IMG/VR virus record: IMGVR_UViG_3300032291_002550
Location: 132,981 to 196,980 of that record
Reading direction: 5' to 3' (one strand)
Source of the DNA: a virus
Length of the DNA stretch: 64,000 bases
In this document: in pieces, positions 15,406 through 37,257 of the stretch
Layout of the letters: every line of letters begins with the position of its first letter
Numbering within the stretch: position 1 is the first letter of the stretch
Notes under the pieces: generated by a model
The model's database searches: none
Told to the model about the DNA's origin: nothing
The model's input: only the letters and a program-made list of their open reading frames with translations
Position numbers and translations under genes: made by a program

Positions 15406-16353
15406 ATGGATAATACTAAATTAATTTCTTCTTTAGAATCGGTTCTTGGTCGTGGTAAGAAAACGTCCGGTGGAAATGTAGCATTTTACTGCCCGTTTTG
15501 TAATCATCATAAAAGAAAATTAGAAGTTCAATTAATAACTACTAATAAAGGCGAGAATCATTGGCATTGTTGGACATGTAACAAAGCCGGAAAAAAGCTA
15601 AAAAATTTATATAAACAACTTAATACTAGTTATGATAAAATTGTAGAGTTAAATAAAGCTCTAGGTGTTATTACTAAAGACATTAACAGTTTATTTATAG
15701 AACATTCGAATTATACATCGACACATTTATCACTCCCGGCAGAATATAAATCTTTTTTGGAAGCAGAAAATACCCCTGATTATAGGAATGCTTTAAAATA
15801 TTTAAGAGAAGATCGTGGGTTTACAAATTTTGATATTATAAAATATCATCTAGGATTTTGCGAAACGGGTCAGTATAGACATAAAATTATTATTCCTAGT
15901 TATAATTTATCAGGCAGTTTAAATTTCTTTGTTGGCAGGGATTTCTATGGTTCTAATTTTAAACATAAAAATCCAAATGTAAGTAAAGAAATAATTGGGT
16001 TTGAATTATATGTAAATTGGAATTTACCTGTAGTATTAGTTGAAGGCGCAATTGATGCAATGACAATTAAAAGAAATACCATTCCATTATTCGGGAAAAC
16101 AATTCCAGATGAACTTAGAAAACGATTAATAGAAAAAAAAGTAAAAGAAATTTATATTTGTTTAGATAAAGATGCTCAAAAACAAGCATTAAATGTAGCA
16201 AGTGAATTTATGGATGAAGGTATGACAGTTTATTTTGTAGACCTTCATGAAAAAGATCCAAATGAAATTGGATTTGAACGAATGATTAAAATTATTAAAG
16301 AAACAAAGCCGTTAACATTTGCGGAGTTAATAAAATATAAATTAAATATATGA
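15406..16353 (+). CDS. DNA primase (DnaG/gp61-like)
   Basis: Zn finger CPFC...HCWTC; TOPRIM motifs VEGAIDAM and LDKDA. Confidence 0.9.
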   Translation: MDNTKLISSLESVLGRGKKTSGGNVAFYCPFCNHHKRKLEVQLITTNKGENHWHCWTCNKAGKKLKNLYKQLNTSYDKIVELNKALGVITKDINSLFIEHSNYTSTHLSLPAEYKSFLEAENTPDYRNALKYLREDRGFTNFDIIKYHLGFCETGQYRHKIIIPSYNLSGSLNFFVGRDFYGSNFKHKNPNVSKEIIGFELYVNWNLPVVLVEGAIDAMTIKRNTIPLFGKTIPDELRKRLIEKKVKEIYICLDKDAQKQALNVASEFMDEGMTVYFVDLHEKDPNEIGFERMIKIIKETKPLTFAELIKYKLNI

Positions 16354-19300
16354 TTAAAATTCATAAAATAAATAATAAAATAAGTAATATTCAATATATT
16401 ATTCATATTGCAGATATTCATATTCGTTTACAAAAACGACATGAAGAATATCGTACAGTATTTTCTAGATTATATGAATATTGTAAAAATTTTAAATCTA
16501 ATAATCCAAATACAATTATATATGTAGCCGGAGATATTGCTCATTCTAAGACAGATATGTCACCTGAGCAAATAAACATGATTCAAGATTTTTTTAGATC
16601 ATTAGCAGATATCACAGATACAATCGTAATTACTGGTAATCATGATATGAATCTAAATAATAAAACTAGATTAGATGCCCTAGAGCCTATTATTAATGCT
16701 CTTAATCATCCTAACTTATTTTATTTAAAAAATACCGGTGTTTATGAATTAGGTAATGTTTATTTTAATGTAATGGGTGTATCTGATAAGCCAATATCAT
16801 TTATTAAAGGCATAGATATACCAAATGATAAAATTAAAATTGCTCTTCATCATGGCGCAGTGAATCAAGCTTCGACAGCAGTTGGATTTCAATTAACAAA
16901 TGATCATGTAAATACAGAAACATTTGCAAATCATACAATTACATTATTAGGAGATATACATAAATTTCAATATCTAAACTCAGATAAAACTATTGCTTAT
17001 GCTTCTAGTCTTATTCAACAAAATTTTGGGGAAACTTTAGACTTTCATGGATTGATGATATGGGATGTTAATACCGCACAGTCTAAATTTATAGAAGTAG
17101 AAAATGATTATGGATATGTTACTTTAGAAGTTAGTAATGGTATAATAACGACATACCCAGCAAAATTTCCAAAAAAGCCTAGAATCAAATTAAAGATTCA
17201 AAATACGACATCTTCTCAAATAAAAACAATTGTAGCAGATTTAAAATCTAAATATAATGTTCAAGATATAGTAACGCAGAAAGTAAAAGATTTTCATAAA
17301 GATAATTCTAATACAACAAAAATATCTTTAGGTAATGTTAGGGATGTTGAATATCAAAATACAATATTAACAGATTATTTAACAAATCGTTTAGATATTG
17401 ATGAAGATGAAATTTTAGATGGTGTGCGACATATTAACAGAATAATTAATTCTAAATTACAAAGTGCAGACATTCCTAAGAATATAACATATAATCTTAT
17501 GAAGTTTGAATTTTCAAACATGTTTAGTTATGGAGAAAATAATATTATAGATTTTAGTCAAATGAATGGAATTTATGGATTATTTGCTTCTAACAGAAGT
17601 GGTAAAAGTTCATTATTAGATTCATTATTATATTGTATTTTTGATAAATCTACGAAAACAGATAAAGCAGCATATGTTTTAAATAATAAAAAAGATTCAT
17701 TTTCTTGTAAATTAGAAATTGAAATTAACAATAAAAAATATTTTATTGAGCGGTCTGGAGCAAAACAAAAATCAGGTCATGTTAGAGTAACTGTTAGCTT
17801 TTATACATTAGATGATGCAGGTCAAATTATTTCATTAAATGGTCAAGAACGTGATGAAACAAATGCTATTATCAGAACATATTTAGGAACATATAAAGAC
17901 TTTATTTTAACTTCAGTAATTGCTCAAAATAATAATACTGGATTTATTGAAATGACTCAAAAAGAACGTAAAGATTTATTGTCACAGTTTTTAGATATTA
18001 ATATTTTTGATGATTTACAAAAAATAGCATCTGAAGAAATTAAAGATGTACATGCTCTTTTAAAGGACTTACAAAAACAAGATTTTAGTAGTAGAATTTC
18101 TGATGCAGAAAAAGTTATAAAAGAAAATGAAATATCTCATAAAGAATTAGACATTAAACGTATAACATTAGAAAATTGTATTACGAAGCATGAATCTGCA
18201 TTATTAGATATTGCTTCAAAAATTATACCTTTAACAGATGTAAGTTATGACTTAAATAAATTACAAAATAATTTAGAATTAGCAACATCAAAATCTGAGA
18301 AACTTTTATCTGAAATATTATCAATATCTAATGAAATTAGCAATTTAGACGAACGTATAAGCACGTTAACGGATAAACTAAATACATTTAATATGGATGA
18401 AATTGATAGCTCTTTAAATCAATTAAAATTGTATAACGAGCAACATAAAAAACTGTTATCTGATTTAAAAGTTAAACAAGTACATCATTCTCATATTCTA
18501 GATAAAATGAAAAAATTAGAAGATCTAGAATATGATCAAAATTGTTCATTTTGTATGAATAATATATTTGTAAAAGATGCAATTCAAACTAAAGAAACTT
18601 TATCTTCTCATGAAAATGAAATTAAGGATTTATTGGAAGGACAAAAATCTCTTGAAATTTCAATAAATGGGTTAGACCAATATATACTTCAAAATAAAGA
18701 AGTTAACAGTATTAAAAGTGAAATTCAAGTTCTTGAAAATAAAAAGTCATCTTTAGAGTTAAGTTCTAGTCAAAAGAAAGTTGGACATGCAGCCGCAGAA
18801 AGTTCAAAGAAAGAATTTGTTGATAGTATTAAAACATATAATGAAAATAAAGATGCTATAGAGTATAATTTATCATTTACAGAAGAAATTAAACGTACTA
18901 AAGAAGAATTAAGTAAAGATAAGACAGAATTAGGATTAATTAATTCTCAAATGTCCAAATTAATAACTGGTATTGAATTAGAAAAGCAAAATAAAACTAA
19001 TGCTTTAAATAGTATTGAAAAGCTTAGATCATTAGAACGAGAATATAAGTTTTATGAATTATATCTTTCTGCTACAAATCGTAACGGAATTCCATATGAT
19101 TTAATTTGTAAGGTAATGCCTCAAATTGAAACAGAAATTAATAATGTATTAAACCAATTAGTAGATTTTAATATCATGCTTCAAACAGATGAAAAAAATA
19201 TTAATGCATATATTGTTTATGATGATGACAATTATTGGCCATTAGAACTAACATCGGGGATGGAAAGATTTGTTAGTTCATTAGCTATAAGAAATGCATT

Positions 19301-19526
19301 AATCAGTATTACTAATTTACCTAAACCAAATTTTATTGCTATAGATGAAGGTTTTACGCAATTAGATTCTGAAAACATGAATCAAGTATATTTATTATTC
19401 AATTATCTTAAAACACAATTTGATTTTATGATGATTATTTCTCATATAGATGTTATGAGAGATATGGTAGAACATTTTATTGAAATTAAAAAAGAACAAG
19501 GATTTTCTAAAGTTTCCATTATGTAA
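16350..19526 (+). CDS. Fused Mre11/SbcD (gp47-like) nuclease and Rad50/SbcC (gp46-like) ATPase
   Basis: Phosphoesterase motifs ADIH, AGD, GNHD, LGDIH; Walker A ASNRSGKSS; Zn hook CSFC in the coiled coil; signature SGMERF; Walker B IAIDEGF; H-loop ISH. Confidence 0.92.
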   Translation: MIKIHKINNKISNIQYIIHIADIHIRLQKRHEEYRTVFSRLYEYCKNFKSNNPNTIIYVAGDIAHSKTDMSPEQINMIQDFFRSLADITDTIVITGNHDMNLNNKTRLDALEPIINALNHPNLFYLKNTGVYELGNVYFNVMGVSDKPISFIKGIDIPNDKIKIALHHGAVNQASTAVGFQLTNDHVNTETFANHTITLLGDIHKFQYLNSDKTIAYASSLIQQNFGETLDFHGLMIWDVNTAQSKFIEVENDYGYVTLEVSNGIITTYPAKFPKKPRIKLKIQNTTSSQIKTIVADLKSKYNVQDIVTQKVKDFHKDNSNTTKISLGNVRDVEYQNTILTDYLTNRLDIDEDEILDGVRHINRIINSKLQSADIPKNITYNLMKFEFSNMFSYGENNIIDFSQMNGIYGLFASNRSGKSSLLDSLLYCIFDKSTKTDKAAYVLNNKKDSFSCKLEIEINNKKYFIERSGAKQKSGHVRVTVSFYTLDDAGQIISLNGQERDETNAIIRTYLGTYKDFILTSVIAQNNNTGFIEMTQKERKDLLSQFLDINIFDDLQKIASEEIKDVHALLKDLQKQDFSSRISDAEKVIKENEISHKELDIKRITLENCITKHESALLDIASKIIPLTDVSYDLNKLQNNLELATSKSEKLLSEILSISNEISNLDERISTLTDKLNTFNMDEIDSSLNQLKLYNEQHKKLLSDLKVKQVHHSHILDKMKKLEDLEYDQNCSFCMNNIFVKDAIQTKETLSSHENEIKDLLEGQKSLEISINGLDQYILQNKEVNSIKSEIQVLENKKSSLELSSSQKKVGHAAAESSKKEFVDSIKTYNENKDAIEYNLSFTEEIKRTKEELSKDKTELGLINSQMSKLITGIELEKQNKTNALNSIEKLRSLEREYKFYELYLSATNRNGIPYDLICKVMPQIETEINNVLNQLVDFNIMLQTDEKNINAYIVYDDDNYWPLELTSGMERFVSSLAIRNALISITNLPKPNFIAIDEGFTQLDSENMNQVYLLFNYLKTQFDFMMIISHIDVMRDMVEHFIEIKKEQGFSKVSIM

Positions 19527-19555: not shown

Positions 19556-22237
19556 ATGTACAGAAAAGAACTGTTTTATAGAGGCTTAACTCAACTTCCA
19601 GTATATATTGAAGACACTTTACAAAATTCTCCATATTATTTTAATATTGTAGACATACCTAAAGTATTCGGTCCTGGAAAAAACTCAATTAGATTTAATT
19701 TAAACGAAAATAATCTTGACATTTATAATGATGTAGATGTTGAGATTATTGATTCGTATGGAAATACCGTATATCATGAAGCACCTGAATACTTTCAAAG
19801 TGATGAAGAAAATATTAGAGTATTAACTGTATATCTTTATGGAAATATATCTAACGGCCCTTTACAAATAACCTTTGTAGGGCATGCAAAAACAGGGCTA
19901 AATGGAGAAGAAATACCTGATGAATTTAAAACTAAGTATAATGTACGTTATACAACTATAGTAGATTTTAACCGATTCCAAAAAAATACAAGCAGAATAT
20001 TATTTGCAACATCTCCGAATATATCTATAACAGAAGCAAGAACAGCATATGTTAGTAGAAGTTTAAGTCCGATAGATACGATAACAGTTTCTGGAAGTGG
20101 AATATATCGTTATCAACAATCATATCCGTTATTAGAATTATCTCCTAGCAATACATTTATAAATGATATGCTTAACGGAGTATTAACATTAACAGGCTCA
20201 TCAATTTTACCCGATTTCAGTGGATATACAACATCTAGTTTTAATATATTTAATTCTAGAATAACAAACATTTACAATTCACAAGTAGCTATTTTAAGCT
20301 CGCCATGGACGGCATCTATACTTGATCAAGGGGCTTCACCTTCATATGGATTAGTTAATAATGCAAATGTAAATTATACATTAACATATAATCCAACACC
20401 AAATTATACTCCTATAAATAATTTTAAATCATTTATAAATTTAAAGATATCTAATTTAGAACCAGCATCTGGATACTTAAAATATATAAAATTATACGGA
20501 AAGAGTCAAGGAAGTCTAGACCAATATGAATTATTAGGAGAATCATTAACAGAAAACTCAGAGCTATTAATTAATAGTGCTTCATATACACAATTTGATA
20601 GAAGCAATGTAGGTTATTTTTTAAATACATCTTCGTTCCAAAGCTTTTGGAACTATAATAATACATATCTATCCGCTTCATTTAATACATCTAGTTTATT
20701 TAATTCATTATACTTAACGCCTTTAGTAGATACTACATTAAATAATGTTTTATTTACTAGTAATGTAGATATTAACTTTCAAAAAGGGTCTTCATACAGA
20801 TTATACTTTAACTATGTAAAGGATACAAACTTTATATTAGAAGTATATATGTCTGGGTCTGCATTTATAGATAAGGCAGGGAATGGTCAAAGAGTTTTTT
20901 ATTTAGATTCAACAAACTTCGGTCCTACAAATTTAAACTTTCCTATAGATTTTTTAGCTTCGCAAACAGGCACTGGCAGATTACAATTTAAAATAATAAC
21001 GGGCAGTTTTTATATAAGTGATATTTCATTAAAATCTGGTATTGATCAAGGATTTAATCCTTCAAACTTTAATTCATATTTTCCAATTAACGTAAAAAAT
21101 CGTAATGACGTATATGATTTTAAAGTAGACTTTATTGATGATAATAATCAAATCAATAGTTATGAATTTGATAATACAGGGGCTGTAAATATTCAAGTAT
21201 CTGGAAGTAATCAATACATAAGTGGTAATGATAATTTATTACCCGGAAGATTAAATCTCGGAGAATCTTCTAATAGTGGTATTTCATTAAATGGAAGTAC
21301 TAACACGATATCTACGCATGGATATCAAAGTGGCAGTGGATGGATATTTTGGTCTGGAAGTCAATCTATAAGTGGAAGTAATCAACCAGGCTCAGGATTT
21401 TATTTTGAAACAGGCGCGCCGTATAATCATTACATAAAAGCAGCAGTCGGTGGTCAAGTACAAATAAGCGGAAGTATAGCCGGCGCAACGGGAGGTACTA
21501 CTATCGACACTGGCTCATTTGTAAAGACGGGTTCATTTAATTCATTTACTAGCTCTATTAACAATATAACTGGCTCATTCGTTACTACTAGTTCATTTAA
21601 TTCCTATACGTCAAGTGTAAAACCGGCTATCGATAGTATAGCAGATAAAGCTAGTTTAACAGGAGACAATACTTTTTCTGGAATTAATACATTTACCGGA
21701 GGTAGTGATACTAGATCTAGCGTTGTATTTTCTGGTTATAATGAGCGCGGTGGAACAGGATATCATGGGTATTATGAAGTAGAAAATACGTACGGCAGCG
21801 CAACTAACCCAAAAAAGTTTTTTAGAATAAATGATACCGGTCGATGGGAAGTTATAAATAGCGCATATAGCGAAGTTATATTAGGTCTTACGGATGCAGG
21901 AGTATTTGATACGCCGGGAGGAGGAACTTCAGACCGCAGAACTAAAAATAATATCGAATATATTAATAATGATGCATCCTCGATTATTAATCAACTAAGA
22001 CCGGTTAAGTTTGAATTTAAAAGAAACCCGGGCAAAACAAGACATGGATTTATAGCTCAAGATATATTAGAAATAAAGCCTGATTTGGTATTAGGAGACG
22101 GTGATAAAGAAAATGGGACATATGGCTTAGATTATGATGGAATTTTAGCATTAACAGTAAAAGCTTTACAAGAATCTAATAAAAAAATATTTGAATTAGA
22201 GACTATGATAAAAGAATTACAAAATAAAATTAAATAA
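19556..22237 (+). CDS. Tail fibre/structural protein with C-terminal peptidase S74 intramolecular chaperone
   Basis: SDRRTKNNI...HGFIAQD...LDYDGILALTVKALQE plus terminal coiled coil is the S74 autocleavage signature. Confidence 0.85.
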   Translation: MYRKELFYRGLTQLPVYIEDTLQNSPYYFNIVDIPKVFGPGKNSIRFNLNENNLDIYNDVDVEIIDSYGNTVYHEAPEYFQSDEENIRVLTVYLYGNISNGPLQITFVGHAKTGLNGEEIPDEFKTKYNVRYTTIVDFNRFQKNTSRILFATSPNISITEARTAYVSRSLSPIDTITVSGSGIYRYQQSYPLLELSPSNTFINDMLNGVLTLTGSSILPDFSGYTTSSFNIFNSRITNIYNSQVAILSSPWTASILDQGASPSYGLVNNANVNYTLTYNPTPNYTPINNFKSFINLKISNLEPASGYLKYIKLYGKSQGSLDQYELLGESLTENSELLINSASYTQFDRSNVGYFLNTSSFQSFWNYNNTYLSASFNTSSLFNSLYLTPLVDTTLNNVLFTSNVDINFQKGSSYRLYFNYVKDTNFILEVYMSGSAFIDKAGNGQRVFYLDSTNFGPTNLNFPIDFLASQTGTGRLQFKIITGSFYISDISLKSGIDQGFNPSNFNSYFPINVKNRNDVYDFKVDFIDDNNQINSYEFDNTGAVNIQVSGSNQYISGNDNLLPGRLNLGESSNSGISLNGSTNTISTHGYQSGSGWIFWSGSQSISGSNQPGSGFYFETGAPYNHYIKAAVGGQVQISGSIAGATGGTTIDTGSFVKTGSFNSFTSSINNITGSFVTTSSFNSYTSSVKPAIDSIADKASLTGDNTFSGINTFTGGSDTRSSVVFSGYNERGGTGYHGYYEVENTYGSATNPKKFFRINDTGRWEVINSAYSEVILGLTDAGVFDTPGGGTSDRRTKNNIEYINNDASSIINQLRPVKFEFKRNPGKTRHGFIAQDILEIKPDLVLGDGDKENGTYGLDYDGILALTVKALQESNKKIFELETMIKELQNKIK

Positions 22238-22251
22238 AATATTTATAATAT

Positions 22252-24705
22252 ATGAAAAATAAAACTATAGCAATTTATCCTGGAAGATTTCAGCCTTTCG
22301 GAAAACATCATGCAGCTGCATTTATGTGGCTTCAAAATAAATTTGGAAAAGAAAATACGTATATCGTAACATCAAATAAAGTAGACCCGGAAAAATCTCC
22401 TTTTAATTTTACCGAAAAGAAAGCCATTATGGAGCTTTATGGCATTAACCCTTCTCATATTATTGAAGTAAAGAATCCGTACAGTCCCGCAGAACTATAT
22501 AGCCAAATTGACCCGGAAACTACATCGGTAGTATTCATGGTTGGAGAAAAAGATATGGGAGAAGACCCTAGATTTAAAATAGGTCCTAAAAAAGACAGAA
22601 GTCCTAGTTTTTTTCAAAGTTATAAAGGAAATGAAAATAATCTGCAACCATTATCTAAACATGGATATTTAATTACTGCACCACATATTTCATTAAAAGT
22701 GCCTGGGTATGGAGAAATGTCTGGAACAGAAATAAGAAAGGCATTAGGAGATACAACAAAATCACGAGAAGAAAAGAAAGAAATATTTCAAGAAATATTT
22801 GGTTGGTATTCAGAAAAAATGGCTAACTATATATTTGATAAATTAGAAAATAAAATGACTGAAAAATTTAGTAAAGATTGGTGGTTAGATAAACTACTTC
22901 AAGAAGATTGCTGGGATGGATATAAACAAATTGGTATGAAGAAAAAAGGAAAGAAACAAGTTCCTAATTGTGTACCTATTAATGAGTATGATTTAGTTAC
23001 ATGCGAAATTTGTGGTGAACAAATGAAACAGATAACTCCAAACCATTTAAAATACAAACATCAAAGTACTTTAAAGGAATATATAATTTCATACCCAACA
23101 TCGAAATTATTATCAGATTCTTTAAGAAAAGAATTAAGAGATAAAAACCCCATGAAGTCATCAAACTCTATAAAAAAAATAGCAGAGACTAAATTACAAA
23201 AACATGGCAATCCTAACTATAATAATATTGAGAAACAAAAATCTACAATTAAAGAACGATATAATATTAGTAATATTATGCAATTACCGCATAATATTGA
23301 AAGAGCTAAAAAGCAACTAGATTTAATTAGAGAAAGAAAATATTTATCTGGAGAATGGATACCGGCAGAATTAAAAGAAGGATATATCGGGTATAGAGAT
23401 GTGGTACGATTATTGACCGAACAGACATTTAAAAAATATTATTATGAAATTAATAACTCAGATAAAAGGTCTAAAGAATGGCATTTAGATCATAAATATT
23501 CTATTAAAGATGGTTATATGAATGGAATTCCGGCATGGATGTTAGCTATAAAAGAAAATTTAGAAATTGTGCATCATACAATTAATGAATCTAAAAATTC
23601 AAAATCTACAATTGGAATTAATGAATTAATTATACATGCTTTAGAAAGTGCCGGTGGCAGTTCTATACAATTATTATTGTGCGGAGGTGCAGCCGGTCAT
23701 ATGAAACATCCTTTTGATTTACCCCAAGTAACATCTGGTAAAGATTTAATTAATGTTTTTGAAGATTCTGCTACGTACTTAACTACAAACCCAGCAGCAA
23801 TAAAAATTGATGGAGTAAATGCATCAGTTAGATTAGTTATATTAGATGGTCAAAGACAGTTTGTTTTAGATAGAGGCTCGATGAAACCTTTAGATGTTAA
23901 AGGAATTACAAAAGCAGATTTATTAGATAGATTTGGAGAAGGACATGGATTTATTCAAACAGGTGGTAAAGTATTAGATATTTTTAATGATTCATTACCT
24001 AGCATTCAACAAGAATTAAAAGCATTAGGAATGTGGGATAACCCAAATATAATGTTTAATGTTGAATATGTTGCTGGAAGTACTAACGTATTATCCTATG
24101 CTAAAAACTTTTTAGCTATTCATGGTTTATTAGAATTATTTCAAGCTACGCCAAAAAGAAGAGAATCAAAGGAAATTCCATATAATAAAAAAGCATTAGA
24201 ATCTTTAGTAGCAAAAATGAATCCAATTGCAGAGAAATCTGGATTTGAAGTAGTACATGAATTCACTACTAGACCATCTAAACCAGCAAATTTAAGTTCA
24301 GTATTAAATCAAAAGCATACTATTATCATTAATGGTAAAAAAGAATCTAAATCATTAAAACAATGGTTAGATGAAATTCAAACAATACCTAGTGGGCAAA
24401 AAGTAACTTTAATAGATGATAAAGCAGTTGGCGCAGTATCTAAAGAAATATTAATGAGATTATCAGGAAATAATAATATTAATGAAGTAGTAAAAGATCC
24501 TGCAGATTATAAAGCAGCAATTGATGGATATTTTATTTATCTAGCAACAATGTTATTAGGAGATGAAGTATTAGAATCAATTACCTCAGATTTAGGAGAT
24601 AGTAAAGACCAAGAAGGTATCGTAGTAAGAGGATTATATCCAGATGTATTTAAGATAACTGGGTCATTTATTATAAAAGGCATGGAAAGTCAATTTAGAA
24701 AATAA
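22252..24705 (+). CDS. Multidomain protein: HIGH-family nucleotidyltransferase, CWxGY module, Zn-finger/HNH endonuclease, RNA-ligase-like (KxDG) domain
   Basis: YPGRFQPFGKHH and SGTEIR; CWDGYKQIGMKKKGKKQVPNCVP; CEIC...HLKYKH and HLDH...NL...N..K; GGAAGHMKHPFD, KIDG, EGIVVR, FKITG. Confidence 0.75.
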   Translation: MKNKTIAIYPGRFQPFGKHHAAAFMWLQNKFGKENTYIVTSNKVDPEKSPFNFTEKKAIMELYGINPSHIIEVKNPYSPAELYSQIDPETTSVVFMVGEKDMGEDPRFKIGPKKDRSPSFFQSYKGNENNLQPLSKHGYLITAPHISLKVPGYGEMSGTEIRKALGDTTKSREEKKEIFQEIFGWYSEKMANYIFDKLENKMTEKFSKDWWLDKLLQEDCWDGYKQIGMKKKGKKQVPNCVPINEYDLVTCEICGEQMKQITPNHLKYKHQSTLKEYIISYPTSKLLSDSLRKELRDKNPMKSSNSIKKIAETKLQKHGNPNYNNIEKQKSTIKERYNISNIMQLPHNIERAKKQLDLIRERKYLSGEWIPAELKEGYIGYRDVVRLLTEQTFKKYYYEINNSDKRSKEWHLDHKYSIKDGYMNGIPAWMLAIKENLEIVHHTINESKNSKSTIGINELIIHALESAGGSSIQLLLCGGAAGHMKHPFDLPQVTSGKDLINVFEDSATYLTTNPAAIKIDGVNASVRLVILDGQRQFVLDRGSMKPLDVKGITKADLLDRFGEGHGFIQTGGKVLDIFNDSLPSIQQELKALGMWDNPNIMFNVEYVAGSTNVLSYAKNFLAIHGLLELFQATPKRRESKEIPYNKKALESLVAKMNPIAEKSGFEVVHEFTTRPSKPANLSSVLNQKHTIIINGKKESKSLKQWLDEIQTIPSGQKVTLIDDKAVGAVSKEILMRLSGNNNINEVVKDPADYKAAIDGYFIYLATMLLGDEVLESITSDLGDSKDQEGIVVRGLYPDVFKITGSFIIKGMESQFRK

Positions 24706-24719
24706 TTATATAAAAGGTT

Positions 24720-25328
24720 ATGGCAAAGAAATTACAAAACATTAGAGCGATAAATCAAATGCTCTCGGGAACTCATAAGTCTCAAAACAAAACAACAGTT
24801 GGTTATCAGTCTAAAGAAGAAGATAGAAATATTGGAGATAAATGGATTGATAATAACGGAATTCAATGGGAACAAAAGGACGGTTATAAGGTTAGTTCAG
24901 CAAAAGCATTAGAAGCAGTTATGGCAGCAATTAAAGCATTAAAAATGCCTAATACATGCCCTAAATGTAATAATGAAATGAAAGATAATCAGTATAACAA
25001 GAAAATGTGGAAAGTTCATAAAATGTGCTTTGATTGTGTTATTGATATGGAACATGAACATAGACTTAATGGTACATATGAACAGTATGAAAAGGATTTA
25101 ATGAGAAAGAATATCGAAGCTTGGTTAATAGATGCAAGAGCGGAAATGAGTGCTATTAAAGAGCTTTTAACTAAAGCAGAATTTGTAAACTCAGATGGTA
25201 CTGTTGAAAAATGGGACACCCCTTGGAAAGGTAAAGAAGAAGAATTAGAAGAATTATTAGAAAGAGACTTTCAAAAAGTAAAGGCTCAATTATTAGGAGA
25301 ACCAATAAATGAAATCATCAATACTTAA
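24720..25328 (+). CDS. Hypothetical Zn-binding protein
   Basis: CPKC...CFDC; late-type motif at 24702. Confidence 0.6.
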   Translation: MAKKLQNIRAINQMLSGTHKSQNKTTVGYQSKEEDRNIGDKWIDNNGIQWEQKDGYKVSSAKALEAVMAAIKALKMPNTCPKCNNEMKDNQYNKKMWKVHKMCFDCVIDMEHEHRLNGTYEQYEKDLMRKNIEAWLIDARAEMSAIKELLTKAEFVNSDGTVEKWDTPWKGKEEELEELLERDFQKVKAQLLGEPINEIINT

Positions 25329-29571: not shown

Positions 29572-30426
29572 ATGAAAAAAATTAAACATAATAAGCTTCG
29601 CAACACAGGTATAATATTTGAATTATTAGTAAGACAAATAACTGCTGATATTTTAAATAATAAAGACTCACAGGCAATTCACATTGTAAAGGAATTTTTC
29701 TCTAAGAAAAGTAGCTTAGCTCATGAACTAAAATTATATCAAACTTTAACAAATGAAAAGCTTTCTAGTGAATGGAAAGCAGGTCAATTATTAGAGGCTG
29801 TAGTAAAGTCAAGAAAAAAATTAGACGAACAAACTTTAGAAAAACTTAAATATAGTTTAATTAAAAGAATTCGTGAAAGCTATAAATTAGAAGACTTCTT
29901 TCAACATAAAGTAAATAACTATAAAGTATTGGCTAGCGTGTATAAATTATTCGAATATGCTGAAGCTGATAATCCTGTTGATGTAGTAGATTCTAAATCT
30001 TGTATTTTTGAGCATTTAATCAGAAAGCCAGAAGATGTGCCTAGTGTAGAAAGTTTAATAGAAACACAGTTTGGCAAAGAAGATAAAGATATTAGATTAT
30101 TATCATATAAAATCTTATTAGAGAAATTTAATGATAAGTATAATAAATTAAATCCTAATCAAAAACAATTATTAAAGCTCTATATCACAAATTCACCAAA
30201 TAATCAAAATGAATTATTTGAATTTGTAATTAGTTCAGTTAAAGCAATTAAAACAGACCTAGACAAGAACATTAAAAAATGTGATAGTCAAGTAGTACAA
30301 ATTAAATTATCAGAAGTAAATAATTTACTAACTACTATTACCGAATCAAGAATAATTAAAGATAATCATGTATTGTCTTTATTAAGATACTTTGAACTAG
30401 TAAAAGAACTTAAAAAAATTAATTAA
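29572..30426 (+). CDS. Hypothetical head-module protein
   Basis: Helical ORF starting KIKHNKLRNTGIIFELLVRQIT, between portal and protease. Confidence 0.6.
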   Translation: MKKIKHNKLRNTGIIFELLVRQITADILNNKDSQAIHIVKEFFSKKSSLAHELKLYQTLTNEKLSSEWKAGQLLEAVVKSRKKLDEQTLEKLKYSLIKRIRESYKLEDFFQHKVNNYKVLASVYKLFEYAEADNPVDVVDSKSCIFEHLIRKPEDVPSVESLIETQFGKEDKDIRLLSYKILLEKFNDKYNKLNPNQKQLLKLYITNSPNNQNELFEFVISSVKAIKTDLDKNIKKCDSQVVQIKLSEVNNLLTTITESRIIKDNHVLSLLRYFELVKELKKIN

Positions 30427-30427
30427 T

Positions 30428-31171
30428 ATGGCATTCAAAAGACTTTTACAAGAAATCGAAGATAAGTTTAATGAAGTGAATCAGTTAGAAGAATTTGCTA
30501 CTAGTAACATGTATTATACATCAATACCAGCTGTAAGTAAAACAAATGCTTTAAATGTTATTAAGTCTAATGAACTATTAAGATTGCTTATATTAAATAA
30601 ACAATTAATATATCGTTTAGATATGAATGAAATAATATTCGAATCTGAGCATGAAAAAGCTATAGATTTATTAAATTCTAAATTACATAAAGCAGATATA
30701 CCTATCATTAATTCTACATCGAAAAATGTACCATCAATGACAGAAGCTTCTACCTCGGGCGGGGCAGGTGCATATTTAACACCTAATGCATTTGGTCATG
30801 AAGCTCCGGAAAGTGCTATCACAGCATATGGAATGAAAAAAGTAGGCGCGCCTAATAAAAATACTAAATCATTAAAAGAATCAAATTATAAAAAAATGGT
30901 GTCTGAAATGTATAGTATATTAGAAGAAGGTAAGTATAATGATATTAAGAATGATCCTACCGTTTCTCCTAAAAAAAAAGTAAACTACGCGATTGCTGAA
31001 GTATATACTAAGTTATTTGAAATTGAAAAGATCATTTCAAGAAACATGAAACTTAAAAATGAAATGAATGTTGATAACAGAATGTATTGGAAATCTACAA
31101 AAGAAAAATTATCTAAACTTTCTGAAAGATTAAATAGAGTTTCGGGTTACCTAAAAAACTTAAGCGCGTAA
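30428..31171 (+). CDS. Hypothetical head-associated protein
   Basis: FKRLLQE N-terminus, TEASTSGGAGAYLTPNAF module, several LxE linkers. Confidence 0.55.
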   Translation: MAFKRLLQEIEDKFNEVNQLEEFATSNMYYTSIPAVSKTNALNVIKSNELLRLLILNKQLIYRLDMNEIIFESEHEKAIDLLNSKLHKADIPIINSTSKNVPSMTEASTSGGAGAYLTPNAFGHEAPESAITAYGMKKVGAPNKNTKSLKESNYKKMVSEMYSILEEGKYNDIKNDPTVSPKKKVNYAIAEVYTKLFEIEKIISRNMKLKNEMNVDNRMYWKSTKEKLSKLSERLNRVSGYLKNLSA

Positions 31172-32015: not shown

Positions 32016-32624
32016 ATGAATACTAATAATTTACTTATAGATTATCTTCCGTTTGAAGTAACGCCTCAAATGATTAACGAGTCGCTAGAACAAAATGGCG
32101 GTCGTTTAATTGTTAAAGGTACTTTACAACGAGCTGATGCTTTTAATCATAATGGAAGAACATACCCTAGACCTATATTAGAGCGCGAAGCTTCTAGATA
32201 TCTTGGTCAAGAAGTTAAAGAAAGAAGAGCCTTAGGAGAATTAGATCATCCAGATTCTTCAGTAATTAACTTAAATAATGTTTCTCATAATATTTTAGAG
32301 ATGCATTGGGATGGTGATGATTTAGTCGGGACTGTTGAAGTACTACCTACACCTAGCGGAAATATTTTAAAGGCATTATTTCAAGCCGGTATTAAATTAG
32401 GTATTAGTTCAAGAGGCTTAGGTTCAGTTAAGCAAATTGACGAGCAAGGACATGTACAAGTTCAAGATGATTTTAATTTATTATGCTTTGACTTTGTTTC
32501 TAGTCCATCAACTCAAGGAGCTTATTTAAGACCTATTAATGAAGGTTCTGGTCAAATAAATATAACAAATAAATATTATTCTGTAGAAAAGATTATTACA
32601 GATATAATATCAGATTTTAAATAA
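32016..32624 (+). CDS. gp21: Prohead core protease (gp21-like)
   Basis: NHNGRTYP, ALGELDHP, VSH, GISSRGLGS, DFVSSPS. Confidence 0.95.
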   Translation: MNTNNLLIDYLPFEVTPQMINESLEQNGGRLIVKGTLQRADAFNHNGRTYPRPILEREASRYLGQEVKERRALGELDHPDSSVINLNNVSHNILEMHWDGDDLVGTVEVLPTPSGNILKALFQAGIKLGISSRGLGSVKQIDEQGHVQVQDDFNLLCFDFVSSPSTQGAYLRPINEGSGQINITNKYYSVEKIITDIISDFK

Positions 32625-33862: not shown

Positions 33863-34825
33863 ATGCAAGACTTATTAAAAGAAGCTATTGCGGATGCAAA
33901 AGCAGTTAAAGAAACAGCCATTGCTAATGCTAAGTTAGCTTTAGAAGAAGCATTCACCCCAAGAATTCAATCTATGATTTCTTCTCGTTTAGCAGAAGAA
34001 GGAATGGAAGATGAAGAAGGAATGGAAGATGAAATGTCAATGGAAGATCCAGGAATGGATGATGATGGAATGGATGTAGGCGATTTATCAATTGATATCA
34101 ATCAAGATGGTCAATTCGATGAATTTGATATTATGTCTAAACCAGGTGCAGCTGCACCGACAGAAGAAATGCCAGCAGAAGAAATGCCAGCAGAAGAAGA
34201 ATTAGATGAGTATGATTTATCAGAAATCTTACGTCAGTTAGACGAAGAAGAGTATGAATTAAACCCAGGCGAAGATCCAGATGCTATTGAAGAAATGGAT
34301 AGAGCCGCTGTTGATGCTGAAGAAGAAGAGCACATGACAGATCTAGAAGAAGAAATTGATATTGATGCTTTATTAGAAGAATTAATGGGCGATGACGAAA
34401 TGTCTGAAATGAATGATGAAATGCCAATGGAAAAGCCAGAAGAAATGATGGAAATGAAAAAGGCAAATGCTAAAATGAAGAAAGAGTTAGAAGAAGCTTA
34501 TAGCGCAATTAAAACTATGAAAGATAGTTTAAATGAAGTTAATATGCTTAATGCAAAACTTTTATTCACAAACAAATTATTTAAAGCTCATACTTTAAAT
34601 GAATCGCAAAAAGTTAAAGTAATTGATACTTTCGATCGTGCTAGAACAATTAGAGAAGTTAAATTAGTATATGCTACTTTATCTGAATCATTCTCAAGCA
34701 AGAAAACATTAGTAAAAGAATCAGTTGCATCTAAACCAGTTGCATCAACAAAACCTAAACAAACTATTTTATCTGAAGGCGAACAAATTGCAAACAGATT
34801 TAAGAAATTAGCAGGTTTAAAATAA
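33863..34825 (+). CDS. Prohead scaffold protein (gp22-like)
   Basis: LLKEAIADAKAVKETAIANAK..LEEAF N-terminus; very acidic; immediately upstream of the major capsid gene; many LxE sites. Confidence 0.8.
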   Translation: MQDLLKEAIADAKAVKETAIANAKLALEEAFTPRIQSMISSRLAEEGMEDEEGMEDEMSMEDPGMDDDGMDVGDLSIDINQDGQFDEFDIMSKPGAAAPTEEMPAEEMPAEEELDEYDLSEILRQLDEEEYELNPGEDPDAIEEMDRAAVDAEEEEHMTDLEEEIDIDALLEELMGDDEMSEMNDEMPMEKPEEMMEMKKANAKMKKELEEAYSAIKTMKDSLNEVNMLNAKLLFTNKLFKAHTLNESQKVKVIDTFDRARTIREVKLVYATLSESFSSKKTLVKESVASKPVASTKPKQTILSEGEQIANRFKKLAGLK

Positions 34826-36644: not shown

Positions 36645-36672
36645 GGCAGAAGAAATTCTGCCTTTTTTTATG
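36645..36672 (+). terminator. Terminator of the capsid gene; copy 1 of a 28-bp direct repeat
   Basis: GGCAGAA-GAAA-TTCTGCC-TTTTTTT-ATG. Confidence 0.9.
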
Positions 36673-36714
36673 TTTTTGACATCCATAGAACATATTTATA
36701 ATAAAAGCAATTCT

Positions 36715-37257
36715 ATGGTTATATACGAAACAATAAATAAAATTAACGGAAAGCGTTATATAGGTAAAGATAAGTACAATGATCCTTCATATCTAGGCTC
36801 TGGTACATTATTAACTAAAGCAATAAAAAAGTATGGCAAAGAACATTTTATAAAAACAATATTAGAGTATTGTAATTCAGAAGAACATATGGCTGAAAGA
36901 GAACAATATTGGATTAAATTAATGGGTGCACAAAAATCTAAGTTATATTATAATATAGGAGAAGGTGGTAATGGCGGAGATAATATTTCACATAATCCTA
37001 AAAAAGATTTATTCATTAAAAAGATGACTAAAATTAATAATGATCCACAATATCTACGTACTACAGTAGGGCATGGTGAATCTACAAAAGAAAATCAACG
37101 TAAAGCAGCAAAAGGACGTTATACATTACCATGGTTTAAAGAAAGATACGGAGATGAAAATGGAGAACGTTTATATGAAGAACGAAGATGGAAATTAAAA
37201 AATAGAAACTATAATAAGTTTAGAGACCCAATAACAGGGAAGTTTTCTAAAATATAA
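36715..37257 (+). CDS. GIY-YIG homing endonuclease (Seg-like)
   Basis: VIYETINKINGKRYIG...YLGSG..L.KAIKKYGKEHF...E..WI...YYNI; start moved to ATG 36715, downstream of the late motif at 36692. Confidence 0.9.
   Translation: MVIYETINKINGKRYIGKDKYNDPSYLGSGTLLTKAIKKYGKEHFIKTILEYCNSEEHMAEREQYWIKLMGAQKSKLYYNIGEGGNGGDNISHNPKKDLFIKKMTKINNDPQYLRTTVGHGESTKENQRKAAKGRYTLPWFKERYGDENGERLYEERRWKLKNRNYNKFRDPITGKFSKI

Follow-up and report, generated by a model that had tools for sequence, protein, structure and literature searches.

Homing endonuclease genes are usually held to spare the gene of their host by residing in an intron, in an intein or between genes. The closest described systems include the ShiLan-type insertion, in which an HNH element lies in the coding gene of a mycobacteriophage DNA methylase (Arsenault, Gosselin & Gogarten 2025, PMC11855218), the LAGLIDADG endonuclease open reading frames (ORFs) fused in frame to mitochondrial rps3 in Ophiostoma and its relatives (Gibb & Hausner 2005, as cited in PMC7902536), the WHO elements of Torulaspora and Lachancea yeasts, which home without splicing (Coughlan et al. 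2020, PMC7282813), and the free-standing homing endonucleases and genes in pieces of phages, such as T4 mob/seg, Aeh1 nrdA-mobE and fractured genes (Dassa et al. 2009, PMC2677866). Here, we describe a nuclease-like block that lies in frame within an enzyme gene of a virus. The stretch analysed, referred to here as the window, is the last 64 kb (64,000 nucleotides, positions 132,981 to 196,980) of the 196,980-bp viral record IMGVR_UViG_3300032291_002550, which has direct terminal repeats. The host gene (22252-24705, + strand) is an uninterrupted ORF coding for an 817-aa fusion protein (P0001), which runs from a nucleotidyltransferase through a linker and the inserted nuclease to an RNA-ligase-like domain. 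The block itself comprises 232 codons (aa 246-477; 22987-23682, +), is inserted in frame and is optional; it is probably an intron-less and intein-less homing endonuclease gene, which is tolerated as a domain insertion in a hypervariable linker.

The extent of the block was defined by comparison with empty alleles. In a search of 5.8 billion proteins, we found around 40 protein clusters of 584-589 aa that are 85-100% identical to the host protein outside the block and read CVPINE-GGAAGHM across the site at which it lies; one of them, P0004 (585 aa), shares 99% identity with P0001 when the block is left aside. Another cluster from this search, P0002 (816 aa, 97% identical), carries the block. 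Viral contigs L001-L004 likewise represent the empty allele, with DNA that is 91-96% identical on both flanks. The sequencing runs containing the stretch are freshwater metagenomes, and when contigs from four freshwater DNA runs were aligned to the window, two runs from different studies (X2 and X8) were each found to hold an insert-bearing contig together with contigs that join position 22985 directly to 23683. The empty form therefore exists as DNA in samples that also contain the filled form. When the block was used to scan viral and metagenome contigs, only a decayed copy (L006/L028) and distant fragments came up, and the genome itself has a single copy. An earlier, sequence-only reading of this DNA had placed the block at 22987-23646 and suggested that it might be an optional insertion at the INE junction. 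The homologue alignment and the 22985/23683 contigs bear out an insertion exactly at this junction and agree with the proposed start, while comparison with the empty alleles puts the true end 36 nt further on, at 23682.

The block is thus 696 nt long, runs from YDLVTCEIC to SSIQLLLC and ends ...SAGGSSIQLLLC. Re-reading of the ORF confirmed that the motifs first noted in aa 246-465 (CEIC...H..KYKH, KHGNPNY/ERYNISN and WHLDHKYS...NLEIV...NESK) lie in one continuous frame, and that the borders read VPINE-YDL and IGINE-LIIHALE-SAG, as originally described. At its N-terminal end is a Ros/MucR-type C2H2 zinc finger (C251, C254, H265, H270; 23002-23061, +), which matches the ROS_MUCR model with an E of 0.014 in the window copy and as low as 7e-9 in relatives, and whose counterpart in a structural model of the block aligns with the Ros DNA-binding domain 2jsp (VIA Z 3.3). 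This is followed by NUMOD3/DUF7487-like helical repeats (NPMK.., KHGNPNYNN, ERYNISN; 23110-23367, +), presumed to form a DNA-binding region. The window copy matches DUF7487 at E 5e-4; among 30 family members, 12 match DUF7487 and five match NUMOD3, a model that the family matches at E as low as 1.6e-11, and Hef of a Campylobacter phage, an annotated homing endonuclease, matches at 53% over aa 298-346. The HNH-like beta-beta-alpha core (23467-23595, +) is marked by WHLDH (D413, H414), N436, N445 and K448, and the pattern D413-H414...N436...N445..K448 is invariant across 30 homologues. In the AlphaFold model of the block (pLDDT 88.8), strands at insert residues 165-169 and 192-196 precede a helix at 197-203, and the residues of this catalytic pattern map to both strands and to the helix. 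The remainder (23596-23682, +) is a tail running to SAGGSSIQLLLC, which the junction census described below identifies as a version of the host LLxE junction that belongs to the element and has Cys where the host has Glu. This tail contains the INE and ALE sites singled out in the sequence-only reading. The insert model has low pLDDT at its end, as does the construct used to model the C-terminal domain over its first 16 residues, and both models are disordered there.

An exhaustive HMMER search returned 1353 relatives of the block at E ≤ 1e-3. Some of these stand alone as proteins of 200-400 aa and align with the block over their whole length (P0137, P0151, P0154, P0160 and P0171), several of them bearing NUMOD3, an arrangement typical of homing endonucleases; a word-based search for free-standing relatives gave one weak match. 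Many further relatives are copies embedded in long nucleotidyltransferase-ligase proteins. All embedded copies have their HNH core 64-71 aa upstream of a GGxxGH[ML] motif, and this holds in two very divergent host families, the second of which carries the motif GGAYGHM...EKxDG.

The junction itself was surveyed by sorting 139 proteins with a GGxxGH[ML]-type motif according to the residue that precedes it. Glu was found before the motif in 87 proteins, all of which lack the HNH core; there was no protein in which Glu and the core occurred together. Cys precedes the motif in 34 proteins that have the core, and in a further 16 that lack it and retain a recognisable remnant of the tail, while the two proteins with Ala at this position both have the core. 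In addition, 15 of 33 intact copies have part of the target repeated upstream, before the zinc finger (LLxEGGA.., extending up to LLKEGGSAGH); in the window lineage it is reduced to the native ...INE. These partial upstream copies, taken together with the element's own LLxC-GGA.. junction, imply that the element entered inside the GGAxGHM codons. Its junction copy restores the start of the ligase domain, and the change from Glu to Cys may protect the filled allele from being cut again. One protein, P0129 (563 aa), ends ...SLLIEG directly after the nuclease block; this may reflect either a split gene or the end of the contig.

The block has been lost by degrees in several lineages. In L006/P0003, 366 nt that include the catalytic core have been deleted in frame, and in P0057 the N-terminal half of the block is gone. 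Elsewhere, only in-frame remnants of the tail are left, 31 aa long in P0035, 26 aa in L009, 12 aa in P0017 and 17 aa in a large group of 574-aa proteins (P0079-P0101). Decay is seen in frame only because frameshifts would destroy the ligase domain downstream, and the series of gain, decay and loss is the life cycle expected of a homing endonuclease gene, with a frame constraint added. An 8-nt direct repeat, ATTAATGA, is found at both INE codons. Deletion by a simple event between these repeats was considered for L009 and ruled out, as L009 reads INE-DE-LII.

The histories of block and host also differ. P0050, P0052 and P0053 have inserts that agree at 97-99% of positions in hosts whose own domains are 71-86% identical, from which it follows that the block moves. 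When P0044 was compared with P0050, the host domains were 75-81% identical and the inserts just 43%; between the window and L006, identity is 90.4% in the retained part of the insert, as against 82.7% and 86.8% in the flanks.

The sequence-only reading had taken the host protein for a capsid-processed polyprotein. Our analysis instead describes a two-domain RNA-repair-type enzyme, in which an NMN adenylyltransferase (NMNAT)-like nucleotidyltransferase is joined through a hypervariable linker to a KxDG RNA-ligase-like domain. The N-terminal part (aa 1-209; 22252-22878, +) is a cytidylyl/adenylyltransferase-like domain with a HIGH motif (GRFQPFGKHH, aa 11-20). It matches Pfam CTP_transf_like weakly (E 0.028) and phrog_395 at E 1.2e-5, and relatives of the host protein match CTP_transf_like with E as low as 1.9e-8. 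A search of PDB sequences with the family profile gave a marginal NMNAT match only, to the NMN adenylyltransferase 2qjt (E 0.13), with aa 6-61 aligned to residues 9-64. The C-terminal part (aa 478-817; 23683-24702, +) is an RNA-ligase-like covalent nucleotidyltransferase domain, with GGAAGHM (aa 478-484), motif I (K518-IDG) and EGIVVR (aa 788-793), all in invariant columns. Its AlphaFold model (pLDDT 86.8) aligned by VIA with T4 Rnl1 (Z 7.2, 175 residues aligned, rmsd 4.2), a Naegleria RNA ligase (Z 7.0) and T4 Rnl2 (Z 6.4); the Z values are modest, and the top structural matches are all ligases. Relatives of this gene carry inteins placed exactly in ligase motif I, in the KxDG region of the C-terminal domain.

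Between these domains lies a CWDGY...KKKGKKQVPNCVPINE linker module (aa 220-245; 22909-22986, +; phrog_9737, E 4.5e-9) with the native junction residue, Glu245, at its end. The CWDGY...CVPINE module is common to several PHROGs of unknown function, and is present in empty and filled alleles alike. The inter-domain linker as a whole is hypervariable, and homologues hold between 0 and 400 residues of unrelated modules there. In the homologue alignment of the linker (22879-22986), these modules include CWxGY...CVP, EGYMS..FPKTVYGVK, a hydrophobic segment and a domain of around 200 aa (WKDF..DFSA..), and their borders frequently read hhxE-G. In L010-L015 and L017 (for example, L011:5986-8499), the N-terminal domain and the CWDGY module are 79-88% identical to those of the window and run through INE-GG into a different C-terminal region of around 600 aa, which carries a Pol-beta-type signature (GS...DIDL; Pfam Polbeta, E 2.8e-4). 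Since the same N-terminal domain is joined to different C-terminal regions at an identical INE-GG, the junction is a module-swapping point. A tblastn search of 50,697 deposited phage genomes found neither the ligase-like domain nor the whole arrangement in a cultured phage; it returned the N-terminal domain in two records, the NUMOD-like repeat in Campylobacter phage Hef and nothing else.

How the nuclease is expressed was addressed by looking for signs of splicing and of separate expression. Neither the Hint nor the Intein_splicing model of Pfam matches P0001 at E ≤ 1, while the same library detects both models in P0130, P0132, P0140 and P0144, with P0130 and P0144 matching at E 1e-10. The termini of the block, Y246 and C477 followed by G478, do not have the form of C/S...HN followed by C/S/T. 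An Rfam search of 22000-25000 gave no match of any kind at E ≤ 10, and hence none to a group I or group II intron, and the host frame is open throughout, so that the earlier statement that the block has no intein or intron holds on both counts. In the other frames and strands, the longest ORF is 55 aa and none reaches 60 aa; when the gene was scanned for promoters, terminators and the TATAAATA late motif, nothing rose above chance. With no Hint domain, Rfam match, alternative ORF or promoter found, the nuclease must be translated within the host protein; and since the linker tolerates insertions, no excision is required.

The Cys of LLLC was considered as an intein +1 residue and rejected, as the inteins of relatives lie in motif I (QEK-C...HN-TDG), around 50 aa downstream. 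P0144 contains a whole mini-intein (aa 748-878) in ligase motif I, and five other proteins (P0128, P0130, P0132, P0139 and P0140) end after an N-intein half of around 100 aa in the same motif, so that the gene family with the in-frame nuclease may also include split inteins or fractured genes.

A homing cycle can be proposed on this basis. Having no start, stop or promoter of its own, the block would be translated together with the host ORF and form an internal domain in a protein of around 93 kDa. The host enzyme would tolerate it, with both catalytic domains intact and in a linker that takes 0-400 extra residues in relatives. In a mixed infection, the nuclease would cut the empty allele near the boundary between ...CCTATTAATGA(A/G) and GGAGGTGCAGCCGGTCATATG..., and repair from the filled allele would then copy the element in, with the element's own ...LLxC junction copy rebuilding the start of the ligase domain. 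Once targets were exhausted, the element would decay through in-frame deletions. A broader proposition, which we see as evenly balanced, is that the block represents a dedicated lineage of HNH-like homing endonucleases for which life as an unspliced, in-frame internal domain of the target protein is the normal state. Such a lineage would embody a third solution beside introns and inteins: it would be translated from the start codon of the host and confined to a disordered linker, its rebuilt junction (LLxC-GGAxGHM for LLxE-GGAxGHM) would restore the host enzyme and might block re-cutting, and it would persist in two very divergent host families.

A number of points weigh against the interpretation of the block as a homing endonuclease gene. 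Its nuclease activity and its homing are both ones that we infer, and it is unusual for an endonuclease to function as an internal domain of a larger protein. The Pfam HNH model matches the block at E 0.85-7.9 and HNH_4 matches one of the 30 family members (E 0.0011), values that are below significance, and the matches of the block model to HNH structures are weak (Foldseek E around 1, VIA Z of at most 3.6), even though the lists of such matches repeatedly hold the HNH domains of Cas9, GVE2 and Gme, together with BrxU, T5 SciA, McrA and I-HmuI. The core is thus called HNH-like on the strength of its motif and predicted topology, not of a significant match. The HNH homing-endonuclease block of the sequence-only reading accordingly stands as a homing-endonuclease-like module with an invariant pattern and a beta-beta-alpha model, though not as an HNH domain that sequence models recognise. 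Finally, the block domain may have a role that benefits the host, and the host protein may be cleaved after translation.

A rival explanation is that the block is a domesticated accessory domain for nucleic-acid binding or end processing, and that its presence or absence reflects modular shuffling of the linker instead of homing. We consider this unlikely. Many unrelated modules are found in the linker, which is a hot spot for them, and L010-L015, which join the same N-terminal domain at INE-GG to a Pol-beta-type C-terminal region, show such shuffling at the very same point; the catalytic residues of the block have been kept across hosts that are 50% divergent; and the pairing of a nuclease with a ligase would be sensible for RNA or DNA repair. 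However, the repeated decay of the block to remnants in several lineages means that there has been no lasting selection for the domain. An accessory domain also fits poorly with a block that is polymorphic among alleles around 99% identical and within single samples, that moves independently of its hosts and that has free-standing, NUMOD3-bearing proteins among its closest relatives.

Much less probable is the mechanism put forward in the sequence-only reading, in which a gp21-like protease would cut a capsid-processed polyprotein after the Glu of two INE sites and one ALE site, freeing the nuclease and sparing the flanking domains, so that the nuclease might be packaged and injected. The prohead protease of T4 has the consensus (L/I)xE, and its substrates are IPI-III, Alt, gp23 and gp22. 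A gene for a gp21-like prohead maturation protease (32016-32624, +; phrog_207, E 2.5e-53), with no shown link to the element, does lie around 7 kb downstream of the host gene, which is itself placed between a tail-fibre gene and packaging genes. The native junction before the ligase domain reads hhxE-GG in all empty alleles, which fits the T4 consensus, and (I/L)xE sites are moderately enriched in P0001 (17, as against 10.0 +/- 2.7 in shuffled sequences). Yet the sites at the borders are not special, as nine of these 17 lie inside the nuclease block, and a protease acting on the motif would therefore shred the nuclease that it is supposed to free. The left INE is the native host junction, which reads INE-GG in empty alleles and LLxE-GG in distant ones; the right site varies, with LKK, LSK or LKQ in homologues; and by exchanging the junction Glu for Cys, the element removes the best site of all. 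In addition, aa 6-20 already form the first strand of the enzyme, with its HIGH motif, which leaves no room for a T4-type N-terminal capsid-targeting leader, and both flanking domains have ordinary cytoplasmic enzyme folds. Neither the release by a prohead protease nor the polyprotein is supported by this comparison. In the same region, three ORFs without a Pfam or PHROG match (29572-30426, 30428-31171 and 33863-34825) have the highest density of (I/L)xE sites, at 3.6-5.0 per 100 aa, and it is these that are more likely to be scaffold or core proteins on which the gp21-like protease acts.

The least credible explanation, that the block is removed by splicing of a kind not recognised here, through an atypical intein or a cryptic intron that overlaps with coding DNA, would agree with the fact that removal of nt 22987-23682 gives the exact INE-GGAAGHM of the empty allele, but runs counter to the failure to find any Rfam match at E ≤ 10 or any Hint domain in a search that does find the inteins of relatives, to termini (Y...C, then G) unlike those of inteins, to a model that is a helical plus beta-beta-alpha unit and not a Hint fold, to the flanking partial target duplicates of other lineages, which would stay in the protein after precise splicing, and to the presence of the joined form as DNA.

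The window also encodes a T4-type portal and a large terminase alongside the gp21-like protease. The tail-fibre gene (19556-22237), which has an S74 chaperone domain, ends just ahead of the host gene, whose start follows 14 nt after it. T4 RNA ligase 1 also acts as the tail-fibre attachment protein gp63, and by analogy a similar double role is conceivable for the host enzyme. Further upstream, a single ORF of 1058 aa (16350-19526) joins an SbcD-like phosphoesterase (Metallophos) to an SbcC/SMC-like ATPase, functions that T4 has as two separate genes, gp47 and gp46. Among the head genes lies a free-standing GIY-YIG endonuclease gene (36670-37257; Pfam GIY-YIG, E 3.4e-5; SegE-like, E 0.004), which is a second, conventional homing-type element of the same genome.

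For the homing endonuclease interpretation, what matters is that a single family of endonucleases occurs dozens of times in an enzyme linker as nothing more than an in-frame domain, with the stages of gain, decay and loss all preserved in frame and with filled and empty alleles coexisting in the same lakes. This provides a clean natural system in which to ask how a selfish nuclease works inside a larger protein, how linkers buffer invasions by such nucleases and how insertions may seed new combinations of nuclease and ligase domains. For annotators, it is a warning that an apparent multi-domain 'polyprotein' of a phage may turn out to be an ordinary enzyme with an unspliced selfish insert.

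Set beside the T4 gp21 substrates, the host protein shares the (L/I)xE motif at the borders of the block and a gp21-like protease gene in the same genome, but it has no N-terminal leader, and the motif occurs often, for the most part within the folded nuclease. The free-standing endonucleases of phages offer a closer likeness, being HNH or GIY-YIG enzymes of sporadic occurrence that target conserved enzyme genes of T4-like phages and home without introns (PMC2677866). These, however, have their own start and stop and either sit between genes or split the host gene, which then yields two polypeptides (PMC2677866), whereas the element in the window neither splits the host ORF nor leaves it. As in the rps3 fusions, to the extent that these are summarised in PMC7902536, the coding sequence of an endonuclease lies in frame with a host protein gene without an intron or intein of its own; in that summary the fusions are of the LAGLIDADG type and belong to fungal organelles, while the window has an HNH-like element in a phage, between two enzyme domains.

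The ShiLan-type insertion is likewise an actively spreading HNH element in a phage protein gene, in which the host frame is open, an intron or intein is undetected and the insert is thought to stay in the host protein as a tolerated loop (PMC11855218), much as the block is here. The two differ in that the ShiLan HNH protein is encoded in another frame, from its own GTG start (PMC11855218), while the nuclease in the window is in the frame of its host, which has no ORF of at least 60 aa in another frame, so that its translation needs no special explanation. Its family is also distinguished by the Ros zinc finger and the NUMOD3/DUF7487 repeats. With the WHO elements, the block has in common that the element supplies a replacement copy of a part of the target gene, leaving the host gene functional and the old part displaced (PMC7282813). 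WHO elements, though, are separate genes that are derived from inteins and lie downstream of FBA1 (PMC7282813); the element described here is translated inside the host protein, and the part that it duplicates amounts to merely around 8-11 codons (LLxEGGA.. and LLxCGGA..). The element thus combines features that these systems show apart: it is in frame and unspliced, is placed in a linker and brings along a rebuilt copy of its target junction.

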